DNA of 64,000 bases from assembly GCA_030018135.1 (NCBI GenBank), contig JASEGJ010000001.1:32001-96000 (forward strand), in the 5' to 3' direction. Below, one piece after another: positions 36,226-39,098 of the stretch. The stretch is from Candidatus Hodarchaeaceae archaeon (GTDB lineage Archaea; Hadarchaeota; Hadarchaeia; Hadarchaeales; Hadarchaeaceae). The translations under genes and the position numbers were made by a program. The notes beneath the pieces are model-generated. The model did no database searches, had not been told where the DNA came from, and saw only the letters and a program-made list of their open reading frames with translations. How positions within the stretch are numbered: the first letter of the stretch is position 1; each line of letters starts with the position of its first letter.

Positions 36226-39098
36226 CTAACCCTTTGCAACGCCAATGGGCTTGAGCCGAGCGACCATCCGCGCAGTGCCCGCGTCGTGGCTGACCTTCAC
36301 CACGCGATCGACATCTTTGTAAGCTTCGGGGGCCTCCTCCGCGATGACCGATATCTTCACCGCTCGCACGATGATGCCCTTGGCTTCCAAGTCGCGTTTG
36401 ACCTGCTCGCCCCAGTATTGCTTTAGCGCCGCGGTTCGACTCATGTGGCGCCCGGAGCCGTGTGCGGTCGAGGCAAAGGTCTCCTGCATGGCCTGTTCGG
36501 TGCCCACCAACACGTAGGAAGCGGTGCCCATGTCCCCCGGGATCAATACAGGCTGGCCGACATCGCGATAAATTGCCGGTATATCCGGATGTCCTGGCCC
36601 GAACGCGCGCGTCGCACCCTTGCGGTGCACGTAAACCTTCCGTAGCTCGCCGTCGACGCGGTGTTCCTCGAGCTTGGCGATATTGTGCGCCACGTCGTAA
36701 ATTATGTGCAAACCAAGGCTTCCGGCATCGCGACCGAATACCTGCTCGAAGGACTGTCTGACCCAGTGGGTTATCATCTGGCGATTGGCCCAAGCGTAGT
36801 TCGCCGCGCACGCCATCGCTGAAAAGTAAGCTTGCCCCTCGGGCGAGGTCACGGGCACATTCACCAGCTCTCGGTCTGGAAGCTCGATCTTATATTGCCT
36901 GACCACGCGCTCCATCGTCCTGAGGTAATCGGAACAGACTTGGTGGCCCAAACCTCGCGAGCCCGTATGGATCATCACCGTTACCTGTCCCTCGCGCTCT
37001 ATGCCAAACTTGCTGGCCACCTGTGGGTCGAGGATCTTATCGACCTGCTGCACCTCGAGGAAGTGATTGCCTGAGCCTAGGCTACCCAACTGTGGGAAGC
37101 CCCGTTGCTTCGCGCTCATGCTGACCTTCTTGGCGTCTGCACCCGCCATACAGCCGCCCTCCTCCAAGCGCTCGATGTCCTCCTTCCAACCGAAGCCGTT
37201 CTCGACGGCCCACCTCGCCCCATTCGTCAGGACCTCGTCCAGCTGGGCGAGTGTGAGCTTCATGTGGCCTGTGCTCCCCAAGCCTGAGGGCACGTTTCGG
37301 AAGAGTGTTTCCACTAGCTGGCGAAGCTTTGGCTGGATATCTTTTTTATCGAGGTTTGTTTGCAGCAACCTGACCCCACAATTTGAAACCACAAAACAGT
37401 CCGCAACAAAGTTGTGATGATTATCCCTAACCGTAAAGTCGTACACTTGACCATTGTGTTCGATCTCCTCCATTTTCACGATCCTATCGTAAACAATTTC
37501 CCCCTCCAAAAACTTGCTCAAAAATTCCTCAAATCTGATGAAGCCCTTTGGAGGTCTAGCCCCTTCGGTTTCCTCGTATATGCTCCTCTCGATAAACTTT
37601 TTATTGACCGGCCCCTCGTACCTCTTCATCAGTTCCTTAGCGCTGCTTTCCCTGCGATCCTCCCGTGTCTCCTTCCTTAAAAGCTCCCTTTCCTGAACAA
37701 TGGCTTGTTTTAGTCTTAGGTAGACGACCGCTGCCATAGCGAGTGCCCTTCGTTTTCTGTTGTATTCGTATCCCACCTTAGACCATAATTTGACCAAGTT
37801 TTCGGGATCTCCGTGAACTAAGAGCCTATAGATTGCCTTGTTCTCGGTCTCCTCAGCGATTGAAATAGTTGAACTCACACCGAACTCCCTAAGCATCTCC
37901 TTTAAATCCCGCAGGAATTTGAGACCGTTTCTCTCTTTCCCCTTCTCTTTGGAAAGCTTTAGCTCGGGCATGTAGAAATTGTAGCCATTCATCGTTTTCG
38001 GCTTGGACATTTCCGCTCCAAAATAGGCAGCCAAAAATAATCTTTTCAACCAGTTGGGTAATCTACGCAACCATCTCGGAACGCGGAAGTCTGCTTTTGT
38101 TTTATCTCCCTTTGGATAGCCAAGTGCCCGTAGGAGTTCGGTGAGGCTCCTAGCAGAAACTCTCAGGAAAACCTCATTTCTAACAAATCTATATCCCTTA
38201 ATTTCGTGCTCCCGTCTCCTCTCGTATATCCTGCCGGCATATCCTAGGGAATTTAGATCCGTCTTTACGTCTTCCAGATCGCTTCTTTCCCCGTAAAATA
38301 CCACGTTCTTGCCGTAGACGACCCCGTCGCCCAGCAAGTAGCTGAAGATTTTCACAAGGTAAGGCAACTTTTCATTTGTAGTAGTGAGGGGAAGCAGTCC
38401 TCGCTTTTTCAACTCTTCTCTAATTGCTTTCCCAAAGCTTTCTTCCGACGCGATCTCGAACTCCACCGGTTCCTCGTAAGCTACGCCCTCAAATGGGTGA
38501 ATCCCAACTTCCTCACCCTGGTAGAGATTCTTGGCCTCCTTCATCCCTACCCTAGTTAGGACTGGGTGATCTGGGGAGAGGGTCAACTTAAACCCTGCCG
38601 CTGTTTCAATCCTTCGGAGGGTCTGTTCATCCCTGTTGAGAGTCAGAAGAACTTCAGTGGGCCTAGCGTGGCCTTGGTTCAGTACGATTACTTGGTCACC
38701 CACGGAGACCTTTTCAATTTCAGCCCAATATCCGAGGGGGGTTAAGACCTTAGTATCCCTTGGAAGGCAGTTGATATCATAGCCCACACCGCCGGGGCTG
38801 ATGACACCCGTCTCAGCATCTGTGGCGGCTACACCCCCGATGGGGAACCCTTAGCCCGAACACGTTTGGACGTGTTCGAATAGCCCTGGTGCCCATCGGG
38901 GAGCGTTATCGAGTACTTATAGATCCCTTGCAGGAACGAAACATTCGCGGCCTGCTCCAGCGTCAGGTCCTTCCTCATCTCGTTGAGCAATTCGGCATCT
39001 GCATAAACTCGGGCTGGCGCGCGCATCCCGCGCTTGTAGTCCTGAGGGATCTCCCAGCGGACATCGTCGATTTGCTTTATTTTACCAGTCCACGACAT
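36226..39098 (-). CDS. rtcB: tRNA-splicing ligase RtcB; exon 1 39098-38880, exon 2 38850-36226; 947-aa precursor, 484 aa after intein removal
   Basis: [26 protein letters not shown]-[intein]-[40 protein letters not shown]. Confidence 0.93.
37381..38769 (-). mobile_element. intein (463 aa) with a LAGLIDADG homing endonuclease, inside rtcB
   Basis: Starts CLPRDT, block [10 protein letters not shown], motifs YLLGDG and AAYFGAE, ends [19 protein letters not shown] before +1 Cys. Confidence 0.95.
38851..38879 (-). other. 29-nt BHB-type mRNA intron candidate in rtcB
   Basis: GGCT-AT|T-CGAACACG-TCCAAA-CGTGTTCG-GGCT-AA|G; removal restores CAG GGC TAT GGG TTC (QGYGF). Confidence 0.85.

Follow-up and report, generated by a model that had tools for sequence, protein, structure and literature searches.

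How can a cell make its RNA ligase RtcB from a gene whose reading frame closes after 89 amino acids? The question is raised by the rtcB gene of a hot-spring archaeon of the phylum Hadarchaeota, which lies in a 64-kb stretch of DNA (the window, to which all coordinates refer unless a contig or another locus is named). The genome assembly comprises 45 contigs totalling 1.108 Mb, at 92.9% completeness; genomes are labeled G (G000 being this one), loci L and contigs C. On the minus strand of the window, archease, a 191-aa LAGLIDADG gene, a 118-aa open reading frame (ORF) and rtcB follow each other in this order, and the rtcB DNA itself falls into three pieces: exon 1, a 29-nt insert and an exon 2 that is in turn split by an intein. 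We are confident that the insert represents a conserved, structured mini-intron of the bulge-helix-bulge (BHB) type that interrupts the coding sequence of the one rtcB found. This reading, put forward in an initial annotation of the window, is backed by inserts at the same site in relatives, covariation, a helix formed by the exons, purifying selection and a likeness to the tRNA introns of the same genome.

The insert and its fold

Read literally, the locus is broken. Exon 1 (38880..39098, minus strand, ATG at 39098..39096), recognized from the sequence, the ORF list and tblastn, comprises 73 codons ending in ...GHQGY, and its peptide is 65-91% identical to the N-termini of the uninterrupted RtcB proteins of relatives. 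It lies in a dead-end frame (38829..39107), whose TAG at 38831-38829 limits the product started at the ATG at 39098 to 89 aa. Pfam assigns the 853-aa frame farther downstream to RtcB plus an intein. Exon 2 starts with an N-extein part of 27 codons (GFPIGG...GYDIN; 38770..38850, from sequence and tblastn), is interrupted at DIN/C by a 463-aa intein with a LAGLIDADG domain (37381..38769; Pfam Intein_splicing, LAGLIDADG_3 and Hint), and ends with a C-extein of 384 codons plus stop (36226..37380; RtcB Pfam E = 2.7e-156), all on the minus strand. Without the 29 nt and the intein, RtcB adds up to 73 + 27 + 384 = 484 aa, the length of the uninterrupted homologues. Our recount agrees with the initial annotation on the letters and position of the insert (exon 1 ends with CAC CAG GGC TAT at 38880, and GGG TTC CCC ATC starts at 38850), on the frameshift to the TAG with its 89-aa product and on the mature length of 484 aa.

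Inserts at the same codon boundary are found in other archaea. Inspection of rtcB across 41 related genomes, together with tblastn searches with the two exon peptides, revealed gaps of 29 or 30 nt at this boundary in four relatives and in none of the others. A degenerate pattern, which fixes the peptides GHQGY and GFPIG only, allows 15-60 nt between them and assumes nothing about the insert, located inserts in 6 of 66 Hadarchaeota genomes (the host of the window counted), belonging to one family and four genera. An exact-pattern scan of one genome per species returned 16 stretches, five of them rtcB inserts and 11 unrelated bacterial matches; the scan of metagenomes returned 23, with 13 rtcB genes carrying the insert, two normal rtcB genes (matched at another QGY) and eight unrelated stretches. 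Pooled, these amount to 14 distinct intron sequences in 17 distinct contexts of 119-120 nt. The 29-nt inserts shift the frame, and the 30-nt inserts end in an in-frame TAA, some with an earlier TGA or TAG, so that every copy blocks translation. The initial annotation had proposed to look in other archaea for frameshifts at GHQGY/GFP with covarying hairpins, and relatives do contain them. Within the genome itself, blastn-short detected no other copies of the intron; a single 15-nt match on C45 falls into a coding region without a hairpin.

A very divergent host among these loci is a metagenome contig of 1867 nt (L072; proteins P0001-P0003), where a 30-nt intron occupies the same site and GGCA replaces GGCU. 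The nearest named relatives of this rtcB are DPANN archaea at ~ 65% identity, and relatives that are 90-92% identical to it are full-length proteins, presumably encoded by intronless genes. The database protein derived from this contig begins 3′ of the intron, indicating that gene callers truncate such genes.

In a BHB motif the strands run through a helix, a 4-bp central helix, a 3-nt bulge and a second helix, and the splicing endonuclease EndA cuts after the second base of the bulge (PMC5829648). The insert region of the window folds at -46.1 kcal/mol (z = -4.87), and none of 200 shuffles was as stable. In the predicted fold, an exon-exon helix is formed by an upstream strand at 38888..38901 (the P-D-G-H codons and the first base of the Gln codon) and a downstream strand at 38834..38849 (the G-F-P-I-G-G codons), both of which are also supported by the alignment. 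The central 4-bp helix, likewise seen in the folds and the alignment, has as its 5′ strand the GGCU of the Gly codon and the first base of the Tyr codon (38882..38885) and as its 3′ strand an intronic GGCU (38853..38856). Directly after the 5′ GGCU strand comes the bulge A38881 U38880 / U38879 (38879..38881), followed by a hairpin of 9 bp with a 4-nt loop (38857..38878). The 3′ splice site A38852 A38851 / G38850 (38850..38852) sits in a 2x3 internal loop, in which AG lies opposite AAG. The intron (38851..38879; all these elements are on the minus strand) would consist of 1 nt, the 22-nt hairpin, GGCU and AA. The initial annotation had described the GGCU/GGCU helix of two G-C and two G-U pairs, the AU/U bulge and the relaxed 3′ site, and all three reappear in our fold; its hairpin stem is perfect, as claimed, with 9 bp in the minimum-free-energy fold instead of the 8 bp given.

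Comparison of the 17 contexts provides a greater level of detail about the structure. RNAalifold yields the exon-exon helix (10 + 3 bp), the internal loop AG/AAG, the 4-bp GGCU/GGCU helix, a 3-nt bulge and the hairpin, and each of the 17 contexts gives the same minimum-free-energy motif when folded singly. Across the alignment, 92.8% of cells are paired on this structure, compared with 30-57% when the partners are slid against each other. In the hairpin, six of the nine pairs display changes on both sides (25 cells), with one base pair being, for example, C-G in 11 contexts and U-A in 6; none of 500 shuffles equalled the alignment in its covariation score or in how many cells had changed on both sides. 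Both flanking helices are present throughout, the hairpin with 8-9 bp and the exon-exon helix with 3 + 10 bp (96.4% of cells paired). The central helix has 4 bp in 16 of the 17 minimum-free-energy folds and 3 bp in L072, with 98.5% of its alignment cells paired, and a strict 3-nt 5′ bulge, AU/U or AU/A, is predicted in all 17. According to these folds, the 5′ site of the rtcB insert is a strict BHB, and the 3′ site is of the relaxed class described in PMC5829648.

The exon side of the structure points in the same direction. Of its 13 exon-helix pairs, intron-bearing contexts keep 12.5 on average (n = 17, range 11-13) and intronless genes 9.7 (n = 35, range 7-12), and the Gly-Tyr codons are GGCTAT in all six intron-bearing genomes from the degenerate scan versus 3 of 35 intronless genes. 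The six are the fair count here, since 11 of the 17 contexts, all of which read GGCTAT, come only from scans that fix this word. Kinship inflates contrasts between the two classes, yet both are interleaved on the RtcB tree. As judged from these alignments, the exon helix is maintained via synonymous sites.

The two sites given by the EndA rule also fit the protein. Cutting there joins GGC UAU/GGG, which encodes Gly-Tyr-Gly, as in 35 uninterrupted homologues, whereas a register one base earlier produces UAA and one base later a non-conserved residue. The claim that the rule restores GHQGY-GFPIGG hence holds up against its neighbouring registers.

Proposed excision of the insert and competing explanations

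A TAA stands directly 5′ of exon 2, and the first in-frame start codon of this exon is the GTG at 38787. The 21 exon-2 codons between the insert and this GTG are conserved at the protein level, and the 28-aa exon-2 peptide is 93-100% identical in 42 loci while the DNA differs. A split protein, with the C-terminal fragment translated on its own, is therefore ruled out, and either RNA splicing or ribosome hopping is required to read these startless codons.

The splicing option gains from the tRNA genes of the same genome. Candidate BHB introns were spliced out in silico and the products rescanned with ARAGORN, which validated eight introns of 14-29 nt in seven tRNAs, each built of 1 nt, a hairpin, a 4-nt helix strand and 2 nt. 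The rtcB insert has the same design. An AA/N 3′ site occurs in six of the eight, and in two the outer helix has 2 bp only. The initial annotation had assigned AA/N to all three tRNA introns in the window; one of these was validated, the 17-nt intron of tRNA-Pro(GGG) (10560..10654, minus strand), with a 3′ site AA/T and a 78-nt tRNA after splice-and-rescan, and genome-wide the preference is not universal. The tRNA genes are heavily interrupted overall (e.g. C40:1321-1441, C7:19689-19783 and C22:11779-11872). They include a tRNA-Met with two introns and two tRNA-Thr genes with introns in the D-arm region and 2-bp outer helices, and unaided ARAGORN mis-names several of them.

All parts of a splicing machinery are present, as genes for EndA, RtcB and archease were found in the genome. 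Its EndA is a single alpha-type protein of 179 aa, encoded at C33:17425-17964 on the minus strand (the same as L087:1474-2013), which aligns end to end with the homotetrameric enzyme of M. jannaschii (E = 8e-36); a search for a second EndA subunit in this genome returned no match below E = 1.2. Kaneta et al. 2018 (PMC5829648) reported an alpha4-type EndA with an extra loop and heavy disruption of tRNA genes for Hadesarchaea, and our data agree on the type of subunit and on the abundance of tRNA introns.

A genome-wide scan for the strict BHB-like build gave 28 matches against 30 in a reversed-sequence control, and the rtcB match is the only one whose removal opens a long frame, which grows from 99 to 957 codons. 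A second apparent mRNA intron, at C33:63704, marks the place where an aldehyde:ferredoxin oxidoreductase-like gene normally ends. When the scan was relaxed and combined with a filter for open frames, it returned 418 matches, among which true cases are inseparable from adjacent genes.

How the message would be processed, with EndA cleaving and RtcB ligating it, we infer from sequence, as we do any effect on regulation. The exon flanks of the rtcB pre-mRNA would pair in the 10 + 3 bp helix, the GGCU at the exon end would pair with the intronic GGCU, and the remainder would form the hairpin. EndA would then cut after AU (AU/U) and after AA (AA/G), and RtcB, together with archease, would join the 2′,3′-cyclic-phosphate and 5′-OH ends to give ...GHQGY-GFPIGG..., with ...DGHQGYGFPIGG... 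as the junction-spanning peptide, before the intein leaves at the protein level. New ligase would be made only where ligase inherited from the mother cell is present. The cell very probably must cut and re-join the ligase's own message with that very ligase; this self-dependence follows provided that the genome has one rtcB and that EndA products are sealed by no other ligase.

Both premises were addressed in the genome. We found one rtcB locus in the 92.9%-complete assembly, and no ligase of the Rnl type was detected above the cut-off (the best RNA_ligase match scores 20.3 bits, with a cut-off of 27). The genome bin G009 carries two rtcB genes, one on C3 (L034) with intron 1 and an intein and one on C8 (L013) without interruption; this may reflect either a genuine second copy or a bin of mixed origin. 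Selection on the intron-bearing genes is strongly purifying, with dN/dS of 0.03-0.10 between them, values that must be read with dS at or beyond saturation and undefined in several pairs, including all with G022. Even the most divergent intron-bearing RtcB retains its catalytic motifs. The initial annotation had named an intact second rtcB, combined with relaxed selection on this copy, as grounds for abandoning the intron; the single locus and the low dN/dS are the opposite of that. In the rtcB of G022 (L033), a run of N at about 590-640 causes an apparent frame change near residue 415-430.

Several observations weigh against the reading as a spliced intron or limit its support. The 3′ site does not form a strict 3-nt bulge in any of the predicted folds, being a 2x3 internal loop in 16 of 17 and a 2x2 shifted pairing in L066, and such a relaxed site sits poorly with the alpha4-type EndAs, which are described as strict (PMC5829648). 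The inserted 'L3' loop is not visible in the EndA of this genome, where the C-terminal half aligns ungapped to the M. jannaschii PDB chains. The central helix is an invariant GGCU/GGCU, so that covariation neither supports nor contradicts it, and in L072 its outer pair is G.A. Both scans of public collections fixed CAGGGCTAT, and their 13 + 5 copies contain GGCTAT by construction. Among public sequencing runs with this stretch we found two DNA runs (3-5% of sampled words) and no RNA run. Finally, the genome is incomplete and could hold a second rtcB elsewhere, as G009 with its uninterrupted copy illustrates.

Removal at the RNA level could also be performed by a nuclease other than the EndA/RtcB pair, or the element could act mainly at the DNA level, as a shield of a homing-endonuclease target; we regard this pair of options as improbable. 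To our knowledge, no other pathway exists in archaea to cut and join RNA. The lack of a strict bulge at the 3′ site, set against the strictness ascribed to alpha4-type EndA in PMC5829648, does favor a different nuclease, but geometry and AA/N site are the same as in the tRNA introns of this genome, some of which have outer helices of 2 bp only. A role as shield would be in line with the occurrence of the LAGLIDADG gene only beside intron-bearing rtcB; production of RtcB would nevertheless still need RNA splicing.

The second route left open by the startless codons is translational bypassing, in which the ribosome would detach once exon 1 has been read, pass over the hairpin and resume ahead of GGG without any splicing. 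Such events are known from phage T4 gene 60 and from the yeast-mitochondrial 'byp' elements, and gene 60 follows a rule of matched take-off and landing codons. The rtcB insert shares a short untranslated gap and a stable hairpin right past the site of take-off, the gap is bordered by a near-repeat (GGCUAU...GGCUAA), and the conserved exon-2 codons are explained by splicing and bypassing alike. The codons, however, are unmatched: take-off at the Tyr codon UAU would require landing on UAA (on AAA in L072), and the Gly codon GGC landing on the second GGC would meet UAA next. A second insert in the rtcB of G022 and G043 (see below) has no Ile codon near its 3′ end. Bypassing also leaves unexplained both the exon helix kept at synonymous sites and the geometry of a 4-bp helix with a 3-nt bulge shared with tRNA introns, and we consider it very unlikely.

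A disabled gene or an assembly artefact, with the function supplied elsewhere or lost, is the hardest to credit of these alternatives: the broken literal reading, the genome completeness of 92.9% and the second intact copy in G009 would agree with it, but the insert occurs in 19 loci from many independent assemblies and evolves by compensatory changes, dN/dS is low (with saturated dS), the catalytic motifs persist, G000 yielded no second rtcB, and a ligase is needed there because tRNA introns are abundant.

Spread of the probable intron and its putatively selfish neighbours

If the insert is a spliced intron, its origin most likely lies in a mobile or selfish element akin to the tRNA introns of the lineage, and not in a dedicated regulator, because its distribution is patchy and a homing-endonuclease gene is adjacent. 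On an RtcB tree of 52 rows, built with the columns around the insert left out, the 19 intron-bearing rows are scattered; parsimony counts 10 changes, of which at least 7 are imposed by well-supported branches.

Comparison with G022 offers a closer look at one such event. Across the segment corresponding to window 38834-38901 and beyond, the intron is identical at 28 of 29 positions and the helix flanks at 43 of 43, followed by a drop to 28 of 47 in the next 47 nt and ~ 70% identity farther downstream in rtcB. These identities suggest that a 72-nt cassette of intron plus helix flanks may have moved laterally and recently, since the alternative, a constraint on every base, is unlikely given the other intron variants. 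Region-wise identities hint that the 5′ part of the G022 gene is nearer to the window type and the 3′ part nearer to L018, with segment 74-100 being unreliable due to two frame changes.

G022 and G043 also carry a second insert, of 31 nt and BHB-like, inside the Asn codon of GYDIN/C, which is the site of the intein in the window. It was detected in these 2 of 66 genomes of the phylum (L033, G022:C1, about 1546-1576, minus strand; L088/L054, G043:C92) and additionally in L076. The insert can form an ACAU/GUGU helix of 4 bp, a 3-nt 5′ bulge AA/U and a 9-bp hairpin with a one-base bulge, with a 4-nt bulge UA/AC on its 3′ side beside a long exon helix. In both genomes this BHB conformer lies 1.5 kcal/mol above the minimum-free-energy fold, and two hairpin pairs, both changed in a compensatory way, distinguish the copies. 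As the inserts sum to 29 + 31 = 60 nt, the frame is restored only when both are removed. L071 has the same first intron as G022, and the second insert is absent there.

In the window, the gene next to rtcB that may be involved in such movement is a free-standing LAGLIDADG homing-endonuclease-like gene of 191 aa (39515..40090, minus strand; PF14528, E = 1.2e-11). It is accompanied by a conserved 118-aa ORF (39162..39518, minus strand), which travels with it, is 50-76% identical in seven other loci and has no Pfam match at E <= 1. The pair lies between rtcB and archease, the activator of RtcB (40199..40669, minus strand; PF01951, E = 2e-46). We found this arrangement in eight loci, all of them intron-bearing: six are complete (window 39162-40090, minus strand, L071, L078, L081, L084 and L086) and two are cut by contig ends (L065 and L066). 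The pair is absent from seven intron-bearing loci; four further ones could not be scored. Among the 35 intronless rows the pair was found in none, with archease inside the fetched flank for all but 12; 21 of the 35 have archease 37-224 nt upstream of rtcB, and two have gaps of ~ 1 kb with unrelated ORFs. In one of these two, L008, the spacer (about 228-1302) contains ORFs of 170 and 190 aa, and in the other, L023, the spacer (574-1287) contains a membrane-like ORF of 237 aa.

The contrast between the classes shrinks once phylogeny is taken into account. Only five phylogenetically independent contrasts of intron versus endonuclease are available, of which 3-4 point in the same direction and none in the opposite one (sign test p = 0.125). 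A link between intron and endonuclease is suggestive, not established.

Together with the intein, the rtcB of the window is host to an intron and has an endonuclease gene as neighbour. Inteins 60-68% identical to that of the window occupy the DIN/C site of rtcB in G009:C3 (L034), L066, L073 and L036, and more distant ones are present at this site in L037 and L038. We tentatively propose, as a possibility that we hold less likely than its opposite, that the rtcB of Hadarchaeota serves as a nest for three kinds of selfish elements: the 29-nt BHB intron, itself without an ORF, would be mobile together with the free-standing LAGLIDADG gene by collaborative homing, the intron breaking the target in rtcB, and carrier cells would need inherited RtcB to make RtcB. 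If true, this would create a self-referential and potentially bistable loop, in which ligase activity that has fallen below a threshold could not recover, and the output of ligase would be tied to the capacity of EndA and RtcB. That the element forms a regulatory 'circuit', rather than being a tolerated selfish element, we infer at most.

Relation to known splicing systems

Splicing of the XBP1 mRNA, in which IRE1 cuts at twin stem-loops and RtcB joins the ends in metazoa, is a proven stress switch. Like the rtcB insert, the introns of the XBP1/HAC1 type are short, lie in the coding sequence, shift the frame (26 nt in XBP1) and are cut by a protein endonuclease. They differ in that the nuclease is IRE1 acting on twin stem-loops, the stress switch is proven and the spliced gene is not the ligase. 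In rtcB, the synthesis of a splicing enzyme would require its own activity, a logic otherwise discussed for switches of the XBP1/HAC1 type.

The closest archaeal parallel comes from Crenarchaeota, where a BHB intron interrupts the pre-mRNA of cbf5, the gene of a pseudouridine synthase (Watanabe 2002; Yokobori 2009, PMC2738675; cited in PMC7714728, PMC5829648 and later work on the endonuclease). According to PMC7714728 (2020), this was the only mRNA intron, and the only BHB intron inside a coding sequence, reported before, beyond those of tRNA and rRNA, to which that paper adds an intron in a 5′ untranslated region (UTR) of Haloferax; the background given in the initial annotation, with cbf5 as the known archaeal case, agrees with this. 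Its remark that it knew of no description of such an intron in rtcB is matched by our literature search, which covered sources other than supplements and subscription journals and found no earlier account of an intron in an archaeal rtcB.

The cbf5 and rtcB elements are alike in being short BHB introns located within the coding part of a gene for an RNA-processing enzyme. For both, cutting by EndA is presumed, and gain and loss among relatives have made the distribution patchy. Unlike cbf5, rtcB encodes the ligase itself, and its host lineage is Hadarchaeota, kingdom Methanobacteriati. The EndA of the rtcB host comprises one alpha-type subunit of 179 aa, in contrast to the alpha2beta2 crenarchaeal enzyme of the cbf5 hosts, and a free-standing endonuclease gene lies next to the rtcB element in the eight loci mentioned above. 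The Haloferax volcanii intron, in the 5′-UTR of HVO_1309 (PMC7714728), makes an mRNA, and neither a tRNA nor an rRNA, the substrate of the splicing endonuclease in a non-crenarchaeal archaeon, as rtcB would; it lies in the untranslated leader, while the rtcB intron splits the reading frame in the catalytic core. Compared with the tRNA introns of its own genome, the rtcB intron has the same build, belongs to the same 14-29 nt class, shares the preferred AA/N site and the occurrence of weak outer helices in some members, and differs in that its host RNA is a message and the outer helix is formed by two coding segments.

For the proposed mobility, the nearest likeness is the collaborative homing of cyanophage psbA and F-CphI (PMC6083498), where, as at rtcB, an endonuclease gene lies just outside a gene with an ORF-less intron and the two co-occur. 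The phage case pairs a group I intron with an Endo VII-like enzyme, the archaeal one a BHB mini-intron with a LAGLIDADG gene. Collaborative homing has so far been described for group I introns in phages. The patchy spread, the short conserved cassette, the second intron and the co-occurring endonuclease bear on the question of how BHB introns without an ORF move.

With an intron in rtcB, a second gene family would carry a BHB intron in its coding sequence, and this in a remote lineage whose EndA has one small subunit only. The literature links archaeal mRNA splicing to hetero-oligomeric endonucleases of broad specificity (PMC7714728, PMC5829648). The rtcB intron would be a natural relaxed substrate other than tRNA, which makes the range of an alpha4-type EndA directly testable. 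On the practical side, gene callers truncate intron-bearing rtcB, and annotations of such genomes will wrongly show RtcB as broken or short.

Two minor observations concern names and neighbours. The stretch L053 (JASEJC010000002.1) is titled 'Candidatus Hodarchaeaceae', an Asgard family, but G002, a genome assigned to the family of the window, has an identical rtcB region; the title is probably a slip between the names in Had- and Hod-. Unlike its crenarchaeal counterparts, the cbf5 of this genome (TruB_N; window 19145-19486, C11:51145-51486, minus strand) is uninterrupted, with an open frame of 339 aa.

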